The notes under the pieces were generated by a model. The model did not search any database. It was given only the letters and a program-made list of their open reading frames with translations, and was not told where the DNA came from. Positions 12,270 to 37,601 of a stretch of DNA of 40,254 nucleotides are shown here, piece by piece; the stretch's first letter is position 1, and each line of letters opens with the position of its first letter. Source of the stretch: a virus (taxonomy: Duplodnaviria > Heunggongvirae > Uroviricota > Caudoviricetes); the IMG/VR virus record IMGVR_UViG_2541047843_000009; one strand, given 5' to 3'. A program made the position numbers and the translations under genes.

Positions 12270-12615
12270 TCTCTGCTCCTGTTGATACGGAAAGGGACAC
12301 AGGCACACCGTTATTCCGCCGCCCGGTCAGCTCCACCACCATTGAACCGTCAAAATTGCTGTTGATGGTGATGGAATCCAGCGTCAACCGTGGCTCCCAG
12401 CGACTCAGCGCCACATACACTGCCGACATGACCTGCAGGCGTAATGCCGGATTTTGTGGCTGATCTATCAGTGCCGACAGCAGGGAACCATATTCCCGGC
12501 GGGCAATACGGCTACCCTGCGGTGTCAGCAGAATGTCCCGCACCGACTGGCGCAGATGATCAATATCAGTAATGACTTTGCCGCTGGTATTGTTCATCCC
12601 GCTATAAAGCGTCAT
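12256..12615 (-). CDS. W: Baseplate wedge protein W
   Basis: 119 aa between V and J. Confidence 0.8.
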   Translation of the reverse strand: MTLYSGMNNTSGKVITDIDHLRQSVRDILLTPQGSRIARREYGSLLSALIDQPQNPALRLQVMSAVYVALSRWEPRLTLDSITINSNFDGSMVVELTGRRNNGVPVSLSVSTGAENGSD

Positions 12616-13190
12616 ACCGGGCCTCCGGTTGTATCGCCGCCTTTCAGGACGCCAGTATGCTGATGCGCATCAACCACGATCCCGTTAGAACTCATCGCTC
12701 CGCCGCCCTGGGTAACGCCACCATTGATCACCACTTCGCTGTTAATGCGCGTGCGGTCAGCCTCCAGTACAAACTCACTGGTTTTCATGGTGATGTTGTC
12801 AGCAGCCTCAATGACCATTGATTTGATGCCCCTGACATACCAGCGCCCGGTGGCGGGTTCGTATTCAAACCAGCCACCGTCAGGATGTTCTGTCACGCAG
12901 GCGTCCGCCGACGTCGACGGTGGTGCGAACTGATTCGAATAGACAGCGGGCAGCGCAAAGGCGGTTTCCAGATTGCCGCCCAGACTCAGCAGCACCACCT
13001 GCTCACCTTCCGATGGTCGCCACCATGTACGGGCATTCCCGGCACGCAGCGTCAGCCAGCTGATCCAGTTGGTTTCAAGCTCGCCCGTTTTCACCCGGCA
13101 AAGCCAGTTTTCCCTGTCCACTTCGGTGACTACCCCTGTGCGGATCAGGTTGGTGATAAGGCGCATGATTTCGGTTAATTGTGCGTTCAT
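12612..13190 (-). CDS. V: Baseplate spike protein V
   Basis: 192 aa; N-terminal domain then a Gly-rich C-terminus, as in P2 gpV. Confidence 0.8.
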   Translation of the reverse strand: MNAQLTEIMRLITNLIRTGVVTEVDRENWLCRVKTGELETNWISWLTLRAGNARTWWRPSEGEQVVLLSLGGNLETAFALPAVYSNQFAPPSTSADACVTEHPDGGWFEYEPATGRWYVRGIKSMVIEAADNITMKTSEFVLEADRTRINSEVVINGGVTQGGGAMSSNGIVVDAHQHTGVLKGGDTTGGPV

Positions 13191-13705: not shown

Positions 13706-14150
13706 GTTTCACCGTCCACATTTCTTCAGGTGCATCAGGTTCCGCTATAGCTTCAACGCTCGACACACTGCCGTCAGTGCTGACCAGCACACGTTCCGTC
13801 AGTTGCAGGTTCAGGCTGATATCACAGACATCGTTGCGCAGAATATCCACCTCAAAGGTGAATAGCTTTTCCCGTAACGCCGGGTTATTGATGGCATCGG
13901 GCTGGTTATCCCTCAGCCACAGCAAAACCGGGGCCATCAGCAGATTCTGGTCGCCGCTGAAATCCTCAATCACCGCGTTCAGTGTGTAACGGTACTCCCA
14001 CGACATGGAGCTGGCCCCCGTGGCAACCAGCGAACCGTTATCCACAAACAGATGCAGTTTGTCCGGGTTATTGCGGACATAAGGCACCGCTTTATTGAGG
14101 GCGTGGCGCAGGGATTGTGGTTTGTTCACTGTTTCGCTCCTGACACGCAA
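13698..14150 (-). CDS. R: Tail completion protein R
   Basis: 150 aa, follows the lysis genes. Confidence 0.8.
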   Translation of the reverse strand: MRVRSETVNKPQSLRHALNKAVPYVRNNPDKLHLFVDNGSLVATGASSMSWEYRYTLNAVIEDFSGDQNLLMAPVLLWLRDNQPDAINNPALREKLFTFEVDILRNDVCDISLNLQLTERVLVSTDGSVSSVEAIAEPDAPEEMWTVKRG

Positions 14151-14382
14151 TAATCATGTCCACTTTGTCTGCACAGACCGCCCAGGCGGCCTCCGTTTCA
14201 TCCAGCAACGCGTTCAGATCACCGTTAGTGCGCGGCGTTGCCTGATCCAGCCGACACGGCGTCACTCGCGGACAACCACTGACGGTAAGCCATACCTCCG
14301 GTGAGTGCCGGACGTTTCCGCAGCCGGATAATGTCAGCAGGCAAAGGAGTATCAGCCCAGCGGCGTAAATCCTCGTTCTCAC
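14092..14382 (-). CDS. lysC: Outer-membrane lipoprotein spanin (Rz1/LysC-like)
   Basis: Starts inside lysB in another frame; signal peptide with lipobox LTLSGC. Confidence 0.65.
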   Translation of the reverse strand: MRTRIYAAGLILLCLLTLSGCGNVRHSPEVWLTVSGCPRVTPCRLDQATPRTNGDLNALLDETEAAWAVCADKVDMIIACQERNSEQTTIPAPRPQ

Positions 14383-14653
14383 GTTTCAGTTCCTCGATCC
14401 GGTGTTGTCGTTGTCTCAGCAGCGTGCTGGTCTGTTCTGCTTCGGCATAGAGCCGCGCCTGCTCCCGGTTATTGGTTTCAGTCAGAATGGACAGGCTGAT
14501 AAGCTGGCTATTGCTCTTTGCCAGTGCCTGGCTTTTGCTCTGCAGCTCGTCTGCCTGCGTGCTGATGGTCTGGCTGGCATCAGCCAGCCGCCACGTCTGC
14601 CAGCCCAGCGCCGCCAGTAATAACGTCAGCACAACCAGCAGCAACCGGTTCAT
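14225..14653 (-). CDS. lysB: Inner-membrane spanin (Rz/LysB-like)
   Basis: 142 aa; N-terminal transmembrane helix then a coiled-coil. Confidence 0.75.
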   Translation of the reverse strand: MNRLLLVVLTLLLAALGWQTWRLADASQTISTQADELQSKSQALAKSNSQLISLSILTETNNREQARLYAEAEQTSTLLRQRQHRIEELKRENEDLRRWADTPLPADIIRLRKRPALTGGMAYRQWLSASDAVSAGSGNAAH

Positions 14654-15027
14654 GCTGCTACCTGTTGCGCCATCTGATTACGGGTGATCCAGAAGGCAAT
14701 AACGGTCAGTAGATAAAAGACCAGGGTAATAGCCCACCCCGTCCAGGCGAGACTTACAACAATCAGCAATCGCATCACCCAACTGGTAAATACGTTTTCT
14801 TTTCGGGTAATTGTCTTCAGCAAAGATGCCCTTAACTCCTGCCAGAGCGGGCCATTCTTAATTAACGCAGCCAGTGCTACCGGAATTACCGCCCATGTCA
14901 GCAAACAGGCTACCCAAACGCCGGACGCTGCCAGTACCGGAAAAATCCCCTGCGGATACACCATTGCTGCGATTAACAGCGCCATCCATAACATCAGAAA
15001 CAGTCCGCTGATTAATTTCTTTTTCAT
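14650..15027 (-). CDS. lysA: Lysis regulator LysA-like multi-pass membrane protein
   Basis: Start taken at MKKKLISGLF, one nt after the K stop; about four hydrophobic helices. Confidence 0.65.
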   Translation of the reverse strand: MKKKLISGLFLMLWMALLIAAMVYPQGIFPVLAASGVWVACLLTWAVIPVALAALIKNGPLWQELRASLLKTITRKENVFTSWVMRLLIVVSLAWTGWAITLVFYLLTVIAFWITRNQMAQQVAA

Positions 15028-15028
15028 T

Positions 15029-15541
15029 TCAGTTTGCTCCCTGTAAACACCAGGCCATCTCCCGCGCACGGCGGTTATCCAGCCCCTGATTAAAAACACC
15101 TTTCACATAAACCCAGCGCGGCAACTGTCGGCATGCATCCGCCCAGCGCCGCTGATTGAGCAATTTCACCAGCGTGGAACTACAGGCATTGCCCGTCCCC
15201 ACGTTGAAGGCAAACGACACCGTAGCGTCATACACCTTCTGCGGCGGCTGTTGCTTCACACACCTTTCCAGCGCCCGCTCCACTCGTAGCACGTTGGAGA
15301 TCAGCCCTTCAGCTGCCTGTCGTTCCGTAATAATTTTGCCGGGAATGACGCCCGACGTATTACCAATGCCGTCGGTCCAGACACCCGCGCTGCACTGATA
15401 CGGCTGCAGACGACAGCCTTCATAATCGGCGATCAGTTTCAGTCCCTCCTCGGAGGTGTGAAGCTGCTGAAACCCCGGCAGCGTGGCAGCAATAGCCAGC
15501 ACGGCCCCGACAAGGCAGCGTTTAACGATTGATGGATTCAT
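15029..15541 (-). CDS. K: Endolysin, T4-lysozyme-like, with an N-terminal signal-anchor-release (SAR)-like hydrophobic segment
   Basis: EG-x8-D/C-x5-T catalytic pattern (EGCRLQPYQCSAGVWTDGIGNT) resembling P1 Lyz; N-terminal CLVGAVLAIAATLPGF. Confidence 0.8.
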   Translation of the reverse strand: MNPSIVKRCLVGAVLAIAATLPGFQQLHTSEEGLKLIADYEGCRLQPYQCSAGVWTDGIGNTSGVIPGKIITERQAAEGLISNVLRVERALERCVKQQPPQKVYDATVSFAFNVGTGNACSSTLVKLLNQRRWADACRQLPRWVYVKGVFNQGLDNRRAREMAWCLQGAN

Positions 15542-15737
15542 AGTCCTCCCGCGAGATCTGCCCGTCGCGCAGAAGCTGGTAGGCTTTGTGTTTGTAGTAC
15601 CAGTTGATAGCCAGCATCAGCACACCGATCATCAGGCCGCCCAGCGTTGAGGCATCCTTGATGGACAAATCGCCCAGCCAGGCCAGCACGACGGCGATGC
15701 AATACGTGATAAAGGCGCTGATTCGCTCAAGCGTCAT
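15522..15737 (-). CDS. Holin, two transmembrane helices (pinholin-like)
   Basis: 71 aa with two hydrophobic helices and a charged C-terminus, immediately upstream of the endolysin. Confidence 0.7.
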   Translation of the reverse strand: MTLERISAFITYCIAVVLAWLGDLSIKDASTLGGLMIGVLMLAINWYYKHKAYQLLRDGQISREDYESINR

Positions 15738-15740
15738 AAT

Positions 15741-15944
15741 TCAGTCCCATAGCTGGACGGTCTGCACGGTGGTGGTTGTCGGAATGTCCGGCAGCTCCAC
15801 CTGCAGCCCGTGAGGTAAAAAGGGGCCGTATTCGGCAAGCCCCGGATTTGCCTTCAGTACCTGCTCCGTGACACCCTGCGTGCGCCCGTAATGACGCCAG
15901 CAAAGTGCGTCCACCGTGTCATACTGATGCGCACGCACTTTCAT
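15741..15944 (-). CDS. X: Tail protein X
   Basis: 67 aa, same length and position as P2 gpX. Confidence 0.75.
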   Translation of the reverse strand: MKVRAHQYDTVDALCWRHYGRTQGVTEQVLKANPGLAEYGPFLPHGLQVELPDIPTTTTVQTVQLWD

Positions 15945-30457: not shown

Positions 30458-31474
30458 ATGACCATCAGAAAACAGCCGAACGGAAAATGGTTGTGTGAGT
30501 GCTATCCCAATGGACGCAATGGTAAGCGCGTGCGTAAGCAATTTGCTACCAAAGGCGAAGCCATTGCATTTGAAAGCTTCACAATGGAAGAAGTGAACAA
30601 AAAACCGTGGTTAGGAGAAAAGGATGATCGGCGACACCTATCAGAATTAATTGAGCTTTGGTATTCCCTGTATGGTCAGACACTCGCAGACCCCAAGCGC
30701 CTCATGGCGAAACTTAGAATTATCTGTAATGGTCTAGGCGACCCCATCGCCTCAGAACTGACAGCCGGTGACTTTACGAAATACCGCGAAGCACGGTTAA
30801 AAGGTGAAGTACGAAATGAAGATGGCACGTTTATGTCGCCCGTTAAGCCCCGCACGGTAAACCTTGAACAGCGCAATCTATCATCTGTTTTTGGTACGCT
30901 GAAAAAGCTGGGCCACTGGTCAGCCCCCAACCCGCTTGCTGGGCTGCCAACATTTAAAATTGCTGAGAGTGAATTGGCGTTCCTGACCCCGGAAGAAATT
31001 AAACGTCTGCTGGATGCCTGCGCCGATTCTCAAAGCTCCAGCCTGCTTTTGATTGCAAAAATATGCCTGGCCACCGGCGCACGCTGGAGCGAAGCCGAAA
31101 ACCTGCAGAGTCATCAGGTATCAAAATACCGTATCACTTATACCAAGACCAAAGGCAAGAAAAACCGAACTGTGCCTATTTCTAAGGATTTATATGAAGA
31201 ACTGCCTAAGAATAGGGGGAAGTTATTCACCCCATGCAGAAAAGCCTTTGAGCGTGCAGTAAAGCGGGCTGGTATCGATCTGCCAGAGGGTCAATGTACT
31301 CACGTTCTGCGTCATACATTCGCTAGCCATTTTATGATGAATGGTGGAAACATATTGGTTTTGCGGGATATCCTAGGACATTCAGATATAAAAATGACCA
31401 TGGTCTATGCACACTTCGCCCCAGACCATTTAGAAGATGCCGTAACTAAAAATCCTTTATTTAATTTGAGGTAA
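30458..31474 (+). CDS. int: Tyrosine integrase (P2/186 type)
   Basis: 338 aa; C-terminal ...HVLRHTFASHF...LGHSDIKMTMVYAH catalytic region with the Tyr. Confidence 0.9.
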   Translation: MTIRKQPNGKWLCECYPNGRNGKRVRKQFATKGEAIAFESFTMEEVNKKPWLGEKDDRRHLSELIELWYSLYGQTLADPKRLMAKLRIICNGLGDPIASELTAGDFTKYREARLKGEVRNEDGTFMSPVKPRTVNLEQRNLSSVFGTLKKLGHWSAPNPLAGLPTFKIAESELAFLTPEEIKRLLDACADSQSSSLLLIAKICLATGARWSEAENLQSHQVSKYRITYTKTKGKKNRTVPISKDLYEELPKNRGKLFTPCRKAFERAVKRAGIDLPEGQCTHVLRHTFASHFMMNGGNILVLRDILGHSDIKMTMVYAHFAPDHLEDAVTKNPLFNLR

Positions 31475-32991: not shown

Positions 32992-33354
32992 CTAGAGAAT
33001 ACAAAGAACATCATCTGGTGTTAACACAGAGTCTTCTACGTACTCAGGGTGGTTACGTAATACATCTCTCTGATGTCTCAAGATCTGCGCTGGAATTTCT
33101 TGCTCATCCACAATTTTGGCAGTATCCAGCAAAATACTGCCACACCTTATTTCCAGCAAAACAAAGCGATTCCACTCTGGACCGTTAGAACACAAAAGGT
33201 CAAACAAAACCTCACCTGTAGCCTGTGAATTGCCCAGTATAACAGAAAGCCTCTTCTCGATTTCGTGAACTGAAGTCAAGGGGTTCTCGTAGCCAGTCGC
33301 CATAACGACGGCAATGAGAGCCCCTGAGACGTTAACACCTGTTATTTCAAACAA
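32992..33354 (-). CDS. rnlB: RnlB-like antitoxin
   Basis: 120 aa; start overlaps the rnlA-like stop by 8 nt; resembles E. coli RnlB (from memory). Confidence 0.65.
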   Translation of the reverse strand: MFEITGVNVSGALIAVVMATGYENPLTSVHEIEKRLSVILGNSQATGEVLFDLLCSNGPEWNRFVLLEIRCGSILLDTAKIVDEQEIPAQILRHQRDVLRNHPEYVEDSVLTPDDVLCIL

Positions 33355-34417
33355 TATACAAATCCTTAATAATTCCCCATGCCTGTCTGGCCTTAGTCAT
33401 CAGTCGTGCCATGTCAGAAACCATACGGCTTGTGTCGACAACTATCTCCATATGGAACAGGCCATGACGTTCTCTGTTAAAGAAAGTATAGGCATCATTA
33501 ATGGTCTTAACCTTAGCTGACGATAAATTGCATCCAAATTGTTGTTTCAGAATAAATTCACTCCCAATTTTATCAAAATAAGGTCCGAAACCATCCTGCG
33601 TGATTGGCATGCCATATCGGTACATTGTTGATTTAAGTACTCCCTCAACTGAACGTAATTCAGGATACAACAACATACAGTAATCGGGTAAATCGGGGGC
33701 GGCGAGTTTAACACACAGCCCAGAAACGAGCAATTTTTCAACATTCTTATGCAATAGTGGGTACGCATCCCCCATTTCACACTCTAGATGTGAGCGAGCA
33801 ACTTCTTTCTGAACTATATACGCTTTGCCATCGTCCTGACGAATGAGAACTTTTTCCAGACCTTGTAAATCGAGTAGCTCTGACAAGTTGAATATAAACA
33901 CTCTATAACATGACAATGGACGCCCTTGTATTTGTAGTGTTCCATTTCTGTGATGCAGACTAACTGTCAACTCATCCTGAAATTCTGGCGAATGAATTTT
34001 CCACACCGTTGTATGAGTGTTCCGTAAGTATTCGTAAAATTGTATATGTGGCTGCTCTGCTGAGAGCTGAAGTACAGATAAAACGTTCGCTTCAACGAAC
34101 CCTTGTAACACCATATTTACCTGTTCAAATTCTGCAGGATTGATGGTTTCATAGAGATTATCAGCCAACTCTTTGCCAAGATTATGATTAGCTCCTGTTT
34201 GATACTGGACTGTAGACGTCCCTCCGTTATTATAGAAAATGTTAACAGTTGCCAAAGCTTCTCCTGGTTTAGCAAACACAACCCGAAGTCCTGCTCTTGT
34301 ACCAGGCATTGGTCCAATTGAATGGACGGAATAGTTTTTATTTTCAATAAATGCCCTAGACGTAGCCTCAATAGTTGTCCGATCCAAATTTAAATTAGTG
34401 TAGTTCCTGACTGTCAT
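33347..34417 (-). CDS. rnlA: RnlA-like endoribonuclease toxin (RNase LS family)
   Basis: 356 aa from MTVRNYTNLNL..., resembling the E. coli RnlA N-terminus and length (from memory); two-gene operon with the antitoxin. Confidence 0.65.
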   Translation of the reverse strand: MTVRNYTNLNLDRTTIEATSRAFIENKNYSVHSIGPMPGTRAGLRVVFAKPGEALATVNIFYNNGGTSTVQYQTGANHNLGKELADNLYETINPAEFEQVNMVLQGFVEANVLSVLQLSAEQPHIQFYEYLRNTHTTVWKIHSPEFQDELTVSLHHRNGTLQIQGRPLSCYRVFIFNLSELLDLQGLEKVLIRQDDGKAYIVQKEVARSHLECEMGDAYPLLHKNVEKLLVSGLCVKLAAPDLPDYCMLLYPELRSVEGVLKSTMYRYGMPITQDGFGPYFDKIGSEFILKQQFGCNLSSAKVKTINDAYTFFNRERHGLFHMEIVVDTSRMVSDMARLMTKARQAWGIIKDLYIV

Positions 34418-34476
34418 TTGCTTAACCCTATAAAAAACTTTAGCAAACTCTACAATATAGCCCCTCTTTAGTCTAA

Positions 34477-34760
34477 TCAGGCGCTGTATCCTGAAATCGG
34501 GTACCGATAATATCCCTCCTGCAGCCATGTGTTGGTGTTAACAAGATACTGTGTATCAATTGAATCCGTCAGACTGCAAAAGTTGATACCTCTTTCGCGC
34601 AGTTCCTCCACCAGCACGACAAGATGCCTCATACTGCGCCTCAGTCGGTCCAGTTTCCAGACCACCAGAGTGTCACCTGCCGATAATGTCCTGAGAAATT
34701 TTTTAGCCCGGGTCTTTCGGGCGTTGTAACGCTGATTTTATCTTCAAAATCAGCGCGCAT
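34477..34760 (-). pseudogene. Truncated, frameshifted Pin-type DNA invertase remnant
   Basis: MVWKLDRLRRSMRHLVVLVEELRERGINFCSLTDSIDT matches the central part of the invertase at 7294-7860; DNA similarity continues upstream out of frame; the C-terminal helix-turn-helix half is missing. Confidence 0.7.
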
Positions 34761-34817
34761 TCTTCTTAGGCCAGCAAGTTCTTATATGTGACGTGACTGT
34801 GGCTACAACAGATACGA

Positions 34818-34880
34818 TTATTCCATAACAGGGCTTGCAGGCCACTCAATATCCGGTGCAGTTGATGTATCAACACGATT
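34818..34880 (-). pseudogene. Tail-fibre assembly gene remnant (C-terminal about 20 codons only)
   Basis: ...[19 protein letters not shown] matches the C-terminal motif of the Tfa proteins at 8343-9357; upstream codons are not protein-like. Confidence 0.55.
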
Positions 34881-34953
34881 CAACAACACCCGATACTTCT
34901 TCCATGCTGAAAGCAATGATGCCGTTCCTAAGTTGCATTTACAGCCACCTTTT

Positions 34954-35250
34954 TCACCCGCGCTCAACCAACAACCAGACCAGCAGACACGCCACCACCG
35001 GCACAGCAAAATCCATCAGGCTTGCCACATCCCACGCGCGCGGATCAAAACCGCCCCACCACGGCATATTCATACGCTTGCCATGCCCGAACATTTCAAT
35101 CCAGCGATATTCTGCCTGGGTGTGCTCACGCGCAATGAAGAACGTACAACCGGCTATCGCACCGTAAGCCCACTTTCCGGTAAAAAGACCAACCAGTACC
35201 TGTGCGACCACAGCACAAAGTGCATGAAGTAAGGGACTTATATCCATCAT
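34954..35250 (-). CDS. Hypothetical small membrane protein (98 aa)
   Basis: Two hydrophobic helices; lies downstream of the lambdoid tail-fibre genes. Confidence 0.5.
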
Positions 35251-35259
35251 TTCCTCCTT

Positions 35260-35538
35260 TCAGCTCCATTCCCGAAGCGGAGTTTCCAGCTCCACGTCAT
35301 AATCCGAGAATACAGAAACATCAAACAAGTCATCAAGAATGCGAATGTTGACAAAATAACCGTCATTCCGGATACAGACAGGTTCTCCCTCTTCTGTTAC
35401 CCCTGTTTCTGTGTAGGTGAAACCAATTTCATCAACTAACAGTTTATTCTGGAGGTCTTCATCTTCCGCCCAGCCAAGAGATGACAGGAAGGCCTTAAAC
35501 TGCAGTTTGTCATGAAACTTCAAAGTTAAATCTTTCAT
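35260..35538 (-). CDS. Hypothetical acidic protein coupled to stf; possible tail-fibre chaperone
   Basis: 92 aa; start overlaps the stf stop (ATGA). Confidence 0.5.
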   Translation of the reverse strand: MKDLTLKFHDKLQFKAFLSSLGWAEDEDLQNKLLVDEIGFTYTETGVTEEGEPVCIRNDGYFVNIRILDDLFDVSVFSDYDVELETPLREWS

Positions 35539-37601
35539 ACGGCCTCTTTTAATTGCCTGTCATTTAATTCTTTATGCCATATGCGGAAATTGCGAATATG
35601 GCCAAACAGATGTCGTTCTCCAGTATTCGTCTGCCCTCCAAATCGGATATTTTTATCAGCGGTCACGCCATTATATTCACAATAAACTTCATTAACCGCT
35701 TTACCATTTGTCACCACATGAAAGTGACCATCAGCTTTTGCAATACATCCAAATGTGGTTTTCTCTGCAAATACATCTGTCGCTGCGCTATTAACATACG
35801 AGCCTGAAGGGTTTGACAGACTCATATATAACTTACCACTACCTCTGTTGATTGCTGCAATTGCTGATTGCCCGGTATTGGCTGCTGCTATATCCCACAC
35901 GCGGGGTGCGGCGTTTGGTGCAATATCCCAGTTTTTATGAATCTCAAGTAAAAAAGTAAATGGTAACTTATAAAGATTATTTCTGGTGGGGATACTAACC
36001 AAATCACTGGCTCTTGTCGTTGCGCTGCCTCCTGAAATAATAAATGATGATACACACGGCCCATTCTCTACTTGTGGGGTGGCAAGATAAATATAGTCAC
36101 CAGATACTGTTGCCCCACCCTGCTTAGGAGAATACTGTATCTGAGAGCCTATTTTTAACTCACCATCAATTGCCTGAATCGTTGCCTCTGCAAAAATCCA
36201 GCCTGTGGTCTTATCCTTCCTGACTCGTGCCGTAATTCTGCCGGAAGCACCACCTGTCATATTAATTTCAAGCGTTTGCGTATCAATGTACGCATCGCCA
36301 AGAAAAGTTGTTGCACTACCATCATACTTATCAAACCGGATACGTAACCTTACCTGTCGTTCTGTTTTAAAACGACATGAGGTTGTCACGTACTTGTTAT
36401 CGCCTGAGACATCAACTGACTTTGTTGCAGCAATTGATGCCATATTAATAGCCGAGGTTTGCCCAATCAGAGAATCGTTGCAGACAAACTTTCCATATGT
36501 AAAACCAAAACAATCCGTCCCGGTTTCGGGCACATCCATGTTTGACGACCTCCCCCAGCTGGCTGGACTTTCCGAATTGAGCATGTAGTTCGTTCTTTGC
36601 CCCTCAATAAGCAGGCCATCACACTCAAATCGCGGCTCATTAATTTCCGCCGTTTTCAGTTCGCCAGATTTGTTGATATATGTTGCCGTTGATGCGCGAC
36701 TGAAATTAACCTGTTTATCATCGGCGACCTGAACCACATCGTCACCAATGGCTATTTTTTTATAGCCCGGAGAAAACCCCGCAATCATATCCAGTGAATC
36801 GTTAAACGGTATCCACACATCAGGCAGCGGCGGCACTATATTCGCATAGGGCTCTGCAGTCACCTCCGCAGCGGCTTCTGCGCGGTCTGCCGCCTTTTCA
36901 GCTCGTGTCGCTGCTAACAGAGCCTCATCCTTTTTCTGCCCGGCCTTTGTTGCGTCTGCTGCGGCCTCCCGCGCTTTTGTGGTGGCAGTTTCAGCTGCAG
37001 TTGTCGCTGATGATGCTTCACGACGTGCTGCGTCAGCATTTTCTGCGGATTTCTCCTCTGACGCCCGGGCATTAGTCTCTGAAAGTGATGCTGATGTTGC
37101 TGCTTTTTCTGATGCTGTTTTAGAAGATGCAGCAGCTTTCGCGCTGTTACCTGCATTCGTCTCTGATGTTTTCGCCGCGTTCCTGGACGATGCCGCTGCA
37201 GTTTCGGATTTCTTTGCCGCCGCTGCGCTCTGAGAGGCGACTTCAGCGTTGCGTGCCGCCTCTTCCACCATCTTTTCAAAACGATACAGTGCCTCCGGAC
37301 GAACATCATCTTCTGTTGCAGCGCCCAGAAAATCATTCAATGTCCCCGGTTTAGAATCCTCATACACGGTAATGGTCCCGGCATGTGAAGGCGGAAAACC
37401 TTCAACCAACAGGGTGACGCTGTACTGGCCATACTCAACATCCATGCTGTAACGCCCGGCTTCATCCGGATTTTCAGAGGCCACCGTGTTCACCAGTACC
37501 GTGGTGCTGTTACGTTTTGCTTTGAGCTGAATGGTGCAGTTCTGTATCGGTTTTCCTGCACCGTCTTTCAGCACGCCTGAAATCTGTACTGCCATATTCA
37601 C
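35535..37601 (-). CDS. stf: Lambdoid side tail fibre protein
   Basis: N-terminus MAVQISGVLKDGAGKPIQNCTIQLKA... matches lambda Stf; Ala/Ser-rich low-complexity shaft; distinct C-terminal domain. Confidence 0.85.
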   Translation of the reverse strand: MNMAVQISGVLKDGAGKPIQNCTIQLKAKRNSTTVLVNTVASENPDEAGRYSMDVEYGQYSVTLLVEGFPPSHAGTITVYEDSKPGTLNDFLGAATEDDVRPEALYRFEKMVEEAARNAEVASQSAAAAKKSETAAASSRNAAKTSETNAGNSAKAAASSKTASEKAATSASLSETNARASEEKSAENADAARREASSATTAAETATTKAREAAADATKAGQKKDEALLAATRAEKAADRAEAAAEVTAEPYANIVPPLPDVWIPFNDSLDMIAGFSPGYKKIAIGDDVVQVADDKQVNFSRASTATYINKSGELKTAEINEPRFECDGLLIEGQRTNYMLNSESPASWGRSSNMDVPETGTDCFGFTYGKFVCNDSLIGQTSAINMASIAATKSVDVSGDNKYVTTSCRFKTERQVRLRIRFDKYDGSATTFLGDAYIDTQTLEINMTGGASGRITARVRKDKTTGWIFAEATIQAIDGELKIGSQIQYSPKQGGATVSGDYIYLATPQVENGPCVSSFIISGGSATTRASDLVSIPTRNNLYKLPFTFLLEIHKNWDIAPNAAPRVWDIAAANTGQSAIAAINRGSGKLYMSLSNPSGSYVNSAATDVFAEKTTFGCIAKADGHFHVVTNGKAVNEVYCEYNGVTADKNIRFGGQTNTGERHLFGHIRNFRIWHKELNDRQLKEAV

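Follow-up and report, generated by a model that had tools for sequence, protein, structure and literature searches.

A P2-type lysis cassette encoding an HP1-family holin, a putative pinholin, and an endolysin resembling P1 Lyz

Described lysis systems and layout of the cassette

The described lysis systems that were compared with the genes analyzed here are those of phages HP1, P1, 21 and P2, together with those of several P2-like phages. In HP1, Hol behaves like a pinholin and Lys like a SAR endolysin whose export depends on Sec, as seen for Lys from azide sensitivity (PMC7312051), and another HP1-family holin, that of LambdaSo, is a pinholin as well (bioRxiv 10.1101/2024.01.23.576932). P1 Lyz is the prototype of the membrane-tethered SAR endolysins (PMC9025707) and requires C13 for its activation (PMC3556154). 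P2 encodes a holin with three transmembrane domains (TMDs), Y (PF04550, phrog_175), and a soluble endolysin, K (phrog_90; PMC3091744).

We analyzed a stretch of 40,254 nucleotides of viral DNA (IMG/VR record IMGVR_UViG_2541047843_000009, Caudoviricetes), which is referred to as the window. The preliminary description had located lysis genes at 15029-15737 and proposed a P2-type order with lysA, lysB and lysC downstream. Two minus-strand ORFs were found to fill exactly this interval. The three downstream genes were recovered by profile matches and gpX (PF05489) was recognized upstream, in agreement with the proposed order. The genes are as follows.

15741..15944, minus strand: gpX (P2 tail protein X), adjoining the lysis genes on their upstream side (PF05489 at 2.2e-34; phrog_46)
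15522..15737, minus strand: class II holin of the HP1 family, putative pinholin, 71 aa (PF16080, phrog_20, hydropathy)
15029..15541, minus strand: SAR endolysin by strong support, 170 aa, GH24/T4-lysozyme fold, P1 Lyz subtype (PF00959, P1 Lyz match)
14650..15027, minus strand: lysA-like polytopic membrane protein, 125 aa, ATG at 15027 (NF038378 at 121.6 bits; phrog_162 at 2.2e-43)
14225..14653, minus strand: lysB, Rz-like inner-membrane spanin (TIGR03495 at 173.9 bits; phrog_89; hydropathy)
14092..14382, minus strand: lysC, Rz1-like outer-membrane lipoprotein spanin (NF038368 at 121.9 bits; PF23793; sequence)

The gene order is X - holin - endolysin - lysA - lysB - lysC - R, and the 3' end of the holin gene overlaps the start of the endolysin gene by 20 nt. 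As in P2, the cassette is located between gpX and the R and S genes, its lysA (phrog_162), lysB (TIGR03495) and lysC (NF038368) belong to the same families, and the spanin genes have an overlapped architecture. The holin and the endolysin, however, showed no homology to P2 Y and K in the Pfam and PHROG assignments, which differ for both proteins, and K, an unrelated enzyme, gave an E-value of 0.006 over 26 residues when compared with the endolysin by BLASTP. As Y and K fall into different families, the holin-endolysin module has been swapped.

The HP1 cassette resembles the one in the window in several respects. A PF16080 holin gene lies directly upstream of, and overlaps, the gene of a P1-Lyz-type endolysin with the same trio of cysteines, the holin has no dual start, a LysB-like gene follows, and the phage background is P2-like. 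It differs in having no lysA and in its position after the tail tube gene, whereas the present cassette follows gpX. The arrangement in P1 is different again, since lyz comes before lydD and has no linkage to lydA/lydB, whereas the endolysin gene studied here is located downstream of its holin gene.

The cassette is the ordinary lysis gene set of Klebsiella and E. coli P2-like prophages and has already been described; a publication on a phage with 97% identity has commented on its nature. When the nucleotide sequence of the cassette was compared, identities of 97.6% (Klebsiella phage 4LV2017) and 97.3% (KP12) were observed. These two phages, Fels-2 and Midge share the identical order X-hol-lys-lysA-lysB-lysC-R, with only point differences. 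For Fels-2, identity is 80% in the holin and 90-91% in each of the two endolysin segments that were compared. In Midge the five genes are annotated as 'holin class II / SAR endolysin / putative antiholin / i-spanin / o-spanin'.

The holin is encoded in at least 570 IMG/VR loci, a number obtained from an alignment search that returned 100%-identical holins only and that gauges abundance, not diversity. The diverse holin neighbourhoods considered below were drawn from a phage collection instead. Among the 80 IMG/VR loci that were fetched, 78 encode an identical endolysin with its N-terminus and catalytic motif intact; one of the remaining two carries a frameshift just past endolysin E41 and the other yielded an unrelated ORF. 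As the cassette recurs across many IMG/VR loci, it is not a chance feature. It is abundant in prophages of Klebsiella, E. coli, Salmonella and related bacteria, and its discovery value is small.

Scans of the window for tRNA and Rfam families found nothing, and a promoter/terminator scan around the cassette gave background levels. Plus-strand ORFs overlapping the cassette had no support and were treated as spurious.

The endolysin, its start codon and its N-terminal segment

The endolysin had been described as an enzyme of the T4-lysozyme type with an E/D/T catalytic triad and an N-terminal hydrophobic stretch, as in SAR endolysins such as P1 Lyz. The match to Pfam Phage_lysozyme (PF00959 at 1.4e-39) confirmed the enzyme type. 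Its best solved (PDB) relative was P1 Lyz 1xjt (E-value 1e-26), in an alignment that begins at residue 13, within the hydrophobic segment, and identity to P1 Lyz is only about 35-37%. The muramidase domain contains the motif defined as E-x8-(D/C)-x5-T (PMC3556154, PMC9239132). The triad itself had to be revised. When aligned to T4 lysozyme (E11/D20/T26) and P1 Lyz (E42/C51/T57), it reads E41/C50/T56, with Cys at the Asp position, and the same is true of P1 Lyz and HP1 Lys. This correction to E/C/T strengthens the P1 Lyz analogy. The endolysin of phage 21, R21, has an E/D/T triad and no cysteine switch, and differs in this from the E/C/T enzyme found here.

Common features of the endolysin and P1 Lyz are the GH24 lysozyme fold, an uncharged hydrophobic N-terminal SAR segment after basic residues, the E-x8-C-x5-T triad, one Cys at Glu+2 and another where the SAR segment begins. 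On the other hand, the endolysin lacks the 11-residue insertion that P1 and HP1 have after the NVG motif.

Two reference records bear on the start codon, as RefSeq/GenBank use a short GTG start for 4LV2017 (NC_047818 gp20) and Fels-2 (STM2715). If this internal GTG were used here, the product (157-158 aa) would be a soluble cytoplasmic enzyme freed via the holin holes. We consider this extremely unlikely. The internal GTG has no Shine-Dalgarno site, whereas a strong one (GGGAGGA) is found 3-4 nt ahead of the ATG at 15541, and the 13 codons upstream of the GTG are conserved in translation (xxSIVKRC) even in relatives that are only about 55% identical. The long start is used in the records of KP12, Midge, EtG and Yersinia phages. 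Moreover, the short form would still open with a truncated hydrophobic stretch. By truncating the endolysin start, the 4LV2017 and Fels-2 reference records hide the SAR segment and the regulatory cysteine.

The protein read from the ATG at 15541 does contain the hydrophobic stretch, CLVGAVLAIAATLPGF, at residues 9-24 (C9-F24), with K7 and R8 just before it. This segment consists of 16 uncharged residues (44% G/A/S/T) and is weakly hydrophobic; its best 15-residue dG of +1.5 is borderline for a stable insertion. It is shorter than the corresponding stretch of P1 Lyz (20 uncharged residues) and also less hydrophobic. C9, C43 and C50 align with P1 Lyz C13, C44 and C51, and the pattern in HP1 Lys is identical. 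Furthermore, a Cys is located in or beside the N-terminal segment in 17 of the 19 relatives that share no more than 80% identity and have a hydrophobic segment and the E-C-C-T pattern. The two without it look N-terminally truncated. A Cys at the triad position was rejected as a mark of SAR regulation when taken alone, as about 50 soluble relatives also carry it; it tells something only when it occurs together with the N-terminal Cys.

An AlphaFold model of the endolysin, built on a 36-sequence alignment, had a pLDDT of 96 with block means of 97-98 for residues 11-30 (a single-sequence run gave a pLDDT of 43 and was unusable). Among PDB structures the model was best matched by 1xjt, which is P1 Lyz in its active form, with a TMq of 0.85 over 173 columns; the inactive form, 1xju, reached 0.57. 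The full-length alignment of the model to 1xjt implies that residues 11-30 would belong to the fold.

We also considered that the N-terminus could be a conventional Sec signal peptide that is removed, which would yield a soluble enzyme in the periplasm. Its hydrophobic core is indeed short, and in Midge and Yen06.16-2 it has only 14 uncharged residues; A16-I17-A18 (AxA) within the segment is a possible signal-peptidase site that is kept across the subfamily; and SignalP predicted a signal peptide in HP1 Lys (PMC7312051). However, A-I-A is also found within the segment of P1 Lyz, the membrane-tethered prototype (PMC9025707). Cleavage would lose C9, the residue aligned with P1 Lyz C13, at which a Cys is so widely kept among the relatives. 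The segment is conserved as strongly as the mature domain (0.64-0.73 versus 0.61-0.64 for the catalytic domain with Midge, Yen06.16-2 and ENT90), it is modelled with high pLDDT, and the model as a whole matches full-length active P1 Lyz. In addition, an active muramidase that is secreted constitutively would lyse the cells prematurely. A cleaved signal peptide is therefore very improbable, and assignment of the endolysin to the SAR type, like P1 Lyz, is strongly supported by the sequence and model matches to P1 Lyz, the cysteine trio, the co-conserved N-terminal Cys and the conserved segment. With regard to enzybiotic use, the enzyme would be membrane-targeted and is predicted to be disulfide-regulated, with a triad Cys instead of Asp.

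The holin and the question of hole size

Two transmembrane helices had been noted in the 71-aa protein, and hydrophobic segments were indeed observed at residues ~6-22 (TMD1) and ~29-48 (TMD2), followed by a charged C-terminal tail, KHKAYQLLRDGQISREDYESINR, as in a class II holin. The protein matched PF16080 (HP1 family) at 36.7 bits (cut-off 28.8), while the score for PF04971 (phage 21 S) was 23.2 bits and below the cut-off of 26. It falls into phrog_20 (1.9e-26), which it has in common with HP1 Hol, and its NCBI name is 'HP1 family phage holin'. In the pairwise comparison with HP1 Hol, identity was 21% with an insignificant E-value of 0.19, so that the profile match is the significant one.

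The holin was compared with that of phage 21, S21; the S21 sequence used was verified by a single check, a match of 122 bits to PF04971. Both holins have about 70 aa, two TMDs and a charged C-terminus, and both genes are located upstream of a SAR endolysin gene. Both also have three small residues spaced four positions apart in TMD2, here S30-x3-G34-x3-G38, in register with the phage 21 S positions and relative to the N(W/L)Y(Y/F)K anchor. Ten close holin relatives (56-86% identity) all retain G34 and G38, and nearly all of them retain S30.

The two proteins differ in that the S21 gene has two start codons, one giving the holin and one the antiholin. In the holin gene analyzed here no dual start was found: the ATG is preceded, two codons before it, by an in-frame TGA (the gpX stop), and no further Met occurs close to the N-terminus. 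HP1 Hol likewise has no dual start, and thus we concluded that a dual start does not define the pinholin class. A further difference is seen in TMD1, which in S21 is rich in Gly/Ala/Ser and SAR-like (summed Hessa dG +6.2; 65% small residues), whereas in the holin it is strongly hydrophobic (-0.56; 35%). TMD1 of HP1 Hol is weakly hydrophobic (+3.9), and values of +3.3 to +5.6 were obtained for other relatives. The SAR-like, weakly hydrophobic TMD1 of phage 21 S68 is hence not found in this holin. Its strongly hydrophobic TMD1 makes a mechanism like that of phage 21, with TMD1 exiting the bilayer, doubtful, and does not argue against small holes as such.

When the neighbourhoods of ten diverse relatives were inspected (Fels-2, ENT90, EtG, Midge, Yen06.16-2, Yen210.17, Ep4, C171, Val-yong3 and HP1), the holin gene was in all cases directly upstream of the gene of an endolysin with a hydrophobic N-terminus. 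Three endolysin subtypes were represented. The pairing was never with a soluble endolysin, as expected if this holin family cannot release soluble enzymes. This observation argues against a reading in which the endolysin is of the SAR type but the 71-aa protein is a canonical large-hole class II holin and LysA would serve as a separate antiholin, a role that has been proposed for it in P2. Such a reading is rather unlikely, even though several features agree with it: TMD1 is hydrophobic enough for a stable membrane helix and is better conserved than TMD2, a dual-start antiholin is absent from the holin gene, and a P2-type LysA is kept in the cassette. Canonical holins also serve SAR endolysins, as in the case of P1 LydA and of R21 in lambda (PMC9025707). 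Besides the pairing, small holes are favoured by the two HP1-family members that behave as pinholins, by the TMD2 pattern in register with phage 21 S, and by the relatives from Ep4 and C171, which pass the thresholds of the HP1 and phage 21 S profiles alike. The support for the 71-aa holin being a pinholin is indirect. For the orthologous holin of KP12, a heptamer model was presented by the authors of that study, with low confidence (pLDDT ~51).

Proposed course of lysis and the accessory genes

The genes probably constitute the late lysis cassette of a P2-like prophage (Peduoviridae, Elveevirus/Fels-2-like), in which an HP1-type module takes the place of P2 Y-K while lysA, lysB and lysC are kept, and which would work by the pinholin/SAR pathway as originally proposed. 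By analogy with P1 Lyz (PMC3556154, PMC9239132, PMC9025707), the endolysin would be exported by Sec and stay anchored on the periplasmic side of the inner membrane through the uncleaved and weakly hydrophobic SAR segment. It would be inactive in this state, with the triad residue C50 held in a disulfide with C43. The two-helix holin would build up in the membrane, trigger at a programmed time and collapse the proton-motive force, most likely by forming small holes. The SAR segment would then exit the bilayer and pack on the catalytic domain, where the thiol of C9 may attack the C43-C50 disulfide, leaving C50 free and the muramidase active. The LysB and LysC spanin pair would subsequently disrupt the outer membrane, and LysA probably modulates the timing of lysis.

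The lysA-like protein has about 3-4 hydrophobic segments and shares phrog_162 with P2 LysA and with the 'putative antiholin' of Midge, and its pairwise similarity to P2 LysA is weak (E-value 0.002). It is a candidate for an antiholin or for a factor that sets the timing of lysis, and the label 'endolysin' that is attached to the LysA family is wrong. A more far-reaching idea is that the HP1-family holin of the Fels-2/Elveevirus phages gained a stably hydrophobic, highly conserved TMD1 and lost the dual start, so that it triggers unlike phage 21 S68, and that timing passed to LysA, which was retained although its original partner P2 Y gave way to an unrelated holin. We regard this idea as tentative and on balance unlikely. 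If true, LysA would have a generic action, directed at membrane energisation or at the SAR endolysin, and would not act by binding one specific holin.

With respect to the lysA start, a longer ORF of 149 aa begins at a GTG at 15099, and the NF038378 match begins at residue 25 of this ORF; the longer form is probably not used. LysB has an N-terminal TMD and LysC has the lipobox LSG-C21. As in P2, lysC overlaps the 3' part of lysB and runs past its end.

Gene content and mosaicism of the lysis cassette

The whole window is a P2-like prophage, in which the lysis cassette is flanked by capsid, terminase, tail and integrase genes. The cassette genes and the neighbouring tail gene are as follows:

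15741-15944, minus strand, gpX, tail protein X (PF05489)
15522-15737, minus strand, holin, 71 aa (PF16080, HP1 holin family)
15029-15541, minus strand, endolysin, 170 aa (PF00959 at 1.4e-39)
14650-15027, minus strand, lysA-like membrane protein, 125 aa (NF038378, phrog_162)
14225-14653, minus strand, lysB, i-spanin (TIGR03495)
14092-14382, minus strand, lysC, o-spanin (NF038368, PF23793)

The endolysin ATG lies within the 3' end of the holin gene (20-nt overlap) and is preceded by a GGGAGGA Shine-Dalgarno sequence located in the holin coding sequence. For the lysA-like gene, the ATG at 15027, one base past the endolysin stop, was taken as the true start because the profile aligns with the long ORF only from residue 25 onwards. 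LysC carries a lipobox (LSG-C21) and has the P2-style overlapped architecture.

When the cassette was compared with that of P2, the P2 proteins Y (PF04550, phrog_175) and K (phrog_90) were found to be unrelated to the holin and endolysin. Both lysB and lysC are clearly equivalogs of their P2 counterparts. P2 LysA (227 bits), the 'putative antiholin' of phage Midge and the lysA-like protein all belong to phrog_162, the pairwise similarity of the last to P2 LysA being weak (E=0.002). The cassette is thus a mosaic of an HP1-type holin and an endolysin of the SAR (signal-anchor-release) type in a P2-type frame, and the same mosaic is found in Fels-2, the 186-like phages Midge and EtG, and ENT90. 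The P2-type order with lysA, lysB and lysC downstream, as given in the preliminary description, is borne out by the phrog_162, TIGR03495 and NF038368 matches.

The cassette is already known and ordinary. Over 2 kb its identity is 97.6% with the Elveevirus Klebsiella phage 4LV2017 (Peduoviridae), 97.3% with KP12 and 80-90% with Salmonella Fels-2-type phages. At least 570 IMG/VR loci encode the holin alone, and the NCBI name 'HP1 family phage holin' covers Klebsiella, E. coli, Salmonella, Citrobacter, Enterobacter and Cronobacter. In GenBank, the Midge homologues are labelled 'holin class II / SAR endolysin / putative antiholin / i-spanin / o-spanin'. The KP12 endolysin orthologue (KP12.peg.319), part of a P2-type cassette (peg.316-320), has a conserved P1 Lyz SAR domain and its model aligns to 1XJT with a TM-align score of 0.83; its authors also sought a pinholin, and their heptamer model of the holin orthologue (peg.320) was of low confidence (PMC9902359).

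The endolysin and its N-terminal segment

The best solved relative of the endolysin is P1 Lyz (1xjt, E=1e-26), with the alignment starting at residue 13, within the hydrophobic segment. In a multiple alignment, E41/C50/T56 correspond to E11/D20/T26 of T4 lysozyme and E42/C51/T57 of P1 Lyz. The region 15029-15737 had been described as a SAR endolysin with an E/D/T triad and a two-helix pinholin; this observation is real and its interpretation essentially right, except for the triad, which is an E-x8-C-x5-T variant since C50 occupies the position of T4 lysozyme D20. In P1 Lyz, a disulfide holds the triad cysteine until activation (PMC3556154, PMC9239132, PMC9025707). The P1 Lyz residues C44 and C13 have their equivalents in C43 and in C9, with which the hydrophobic segment begins.

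Conservation of the cysteine trio was analyzed in the best 150 50%-cluster representatives. The triad-position cysteine alone is not diagnostic, as it also occurs in about 50 soluble relatives. Of the 19 relatives that show at most 80% identity and combine the E-C-C-T pattern with a hydrophobic segment at the N-terminus, 17 have a cysteine in or beside that segment, and the other two look N-terminally truncated. Identity to the window endolysin over residues 5-26 and 27-170 was 0.73 and 0.61 for Yen06.16-2, 0.70 and 0.64 for ENT90, and 0.64 and 0.62 for Midge. Within this close subfamily the N-terminal segment is thus no less conserved than the catalytic domain, which is not the usual pattern for a signal peptide that is cleaved off.

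Cleavage as a signal peptide would fit a segment that is short (16 uncharged residues, compared with 20 in P1 Lyz), marginally hydrophobic and in possession of a conserved A-I-A motif. However, A-I-A is also present in P1 Lyz, the prototype membrane-tethered SAR endolysin (PMC9025707), and we consider cleavage improbable. The AlphaFold model (36-sequence alignment) has a pLDDT of 96, with residues 11-30 at 97-98. Its best PDB match is again 1xjt, the 'active form of P1 phage endolysin Lyz' (TMq 0.85, 173 columns), whereas truncated inactive P1 Lyz (1xju) gave a TMq of only 0.57. Together, the conservation, the cysteine trio and the model argue that the segment is kept in the mature enzyme, in the manner of a SAR endolysin, the type first proposed.

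The holin as a candidate pinholin

The holin scored 36.7 bits against PF16080 (cut-off 28.8) and a sub-threshold 23.2 bits against PF04971, the phage 21 S family (cut-off 26). Pairwise similarity to HP1 Hol was not significant (E=0.19), whereas the profile match was, and phrog_20 is common to both. Holin relatives in Pseudomonas phages Ep4 and C171 exceed the cut-offs of both profiles, so the two families grade into each other. For phage 21 the comparison used S21 and R21 sequences, S21 (the pinholin) being checked only by its 122-bit PF04971 match.

Hydropathy supports the two transmembrane helices noted earlier, at residues 6-22 (TMD1) and 29-48 (TMD2), followed by a charged tail. TMD2 contains S30-x3-G34-x3-G38, in register with small-residue positions of phage 21 S when the N(W/L)Y(Y/F)K anchor serves as the reference point; among 10 close relatives (56-86% identity) both glycines are invariant and S30 nearly so. 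TMD1 is more conserved than TMD2 and strongly hydrophobic (summed Hessa dG -0.56), in contrast to S21 (+6.2), HP1 (+3.9) and others (+3.3 to +5.6). The holin in the window cannot have a dual start, because its ATG is preceded at a distance of two codons by the in-frame stop of gpX.

Two characterised family members point to a pinholin function. HP1 Hol was lethal to E. coli but caused neither lysis nor leakage of beta-galactosidase; it is required for lysis in Haemophilus, and azide, a SecA inhibitor, blocked HP1 phage release, which was read as Sec-dependent export of HP1 Lys (PMC7312051). The HP1-family holin of LambdaSo depolarised the membrane and is partnered by a SAR endolysin (bioRxiv 10.1101/2024.01.23.576932).

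Ten diverse relatives (28-80% identity) from P2-like, lambdoid, T7-like and other phages were also compared. All ten are directly followed by an endolysin with a hydrophobic N-terminus, of three subtypes: P1-Lyz-like (cysteine trio), R21-like (E/D/T) and a third in Autographiviridae Ep4 and C171. Such exclusive pairing is to be expected of a holin family that is unable to let soluble enzymes out. A pinholin is therefore the function we favour for the 71-aa protein, as probable and not as established, because the strongly hydrophobic, well-conserved TMD1 and the missing dual start weigh against a phage-21-like mechanism.

In related holins of EtG (L090 1795-2016), Yen06.16-2 (L088 1795-2016) and Yen210.17 (L089 1801-2016), the annotated N-termini read MGLTMEK, MGLKMEK or MKMEK. 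As with S71/S68 of phage 21, such N-termini may be dual-start holin/antiholin motifs.

Proposed lysis pathway and deviating gene calls

Direct results are the genes present and their order, the families they belong to, the residues that correspond, the patterns of conservation and the structural model; each dynamic step of lysis is modelled on homologues. The Sec system would export the endolysin and C9-F24 would tether it to the membrane, with a C43-C50 disulfide keeping it inactive. Triggering of the holin would depolarise the membrane, and the released SAR segment would pack onto the domain in the conformation predicted by AlphaFold. C9 would then attack the disulfide and free C50, giving active enzyme. 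LysB and LysC would disrupt the outer membrane, with LysA tuning the timing.

In RefSeq, 4LV2017 gp20 (157 aa; L001 2530-3003) and Fels-2 STM2715 (L091 2030-2506) start at an internal GTG. This drops MNPSIVKRCLVGA (window 15503-15541, minus strand), half of the SAR segment including the regulatory cysteine. The short form was rejected, the Shine-Dalgarno sequence and conserved N-terminus favouring 170 aa.

Among L007-L086, two IMG/VR loci have a 199-aa product in which the endolysin runs on, in frame, into the last 33 residues of the gpV-like baseplate protein (window 12612-13190 and 15029-15541); this implies that lysA-lysB-lysC-R-S were deleted and that these loci are defective prophage remnants. 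One further locus has a frameshifted endolysin (79 aa). The 50%-cluster representatives P0121-P0126, P0150 and P0151 are 97-98% identical to the endolysin and much longer (200-549 aa), and the match is confined to their own initial 136-161 residues or to an internal stretch. Frameshifted or mis-assembled gene calls are the probable cause, not real fusions.

The phrog_162 proteins (P2 LysA membrane proteins, lysis timing), including that at window 14650-15027, have no muralytic domain. PHROG labels them 'endolysin', and this label has passed to the RefSeq names of P2 lysA (L003 1210-1635), 4LV2017 gp21 and EtG gp11 (L090 2509-2940).

Past the P2-like integrase (30458-31474), window 33000-37000 matched E. 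coli prophage genes for tail fibres and for tail-fibre assembly at about 97% identity over only 54% coverage, which suggests a second phage-derived region adjoining the P2-like prophage.
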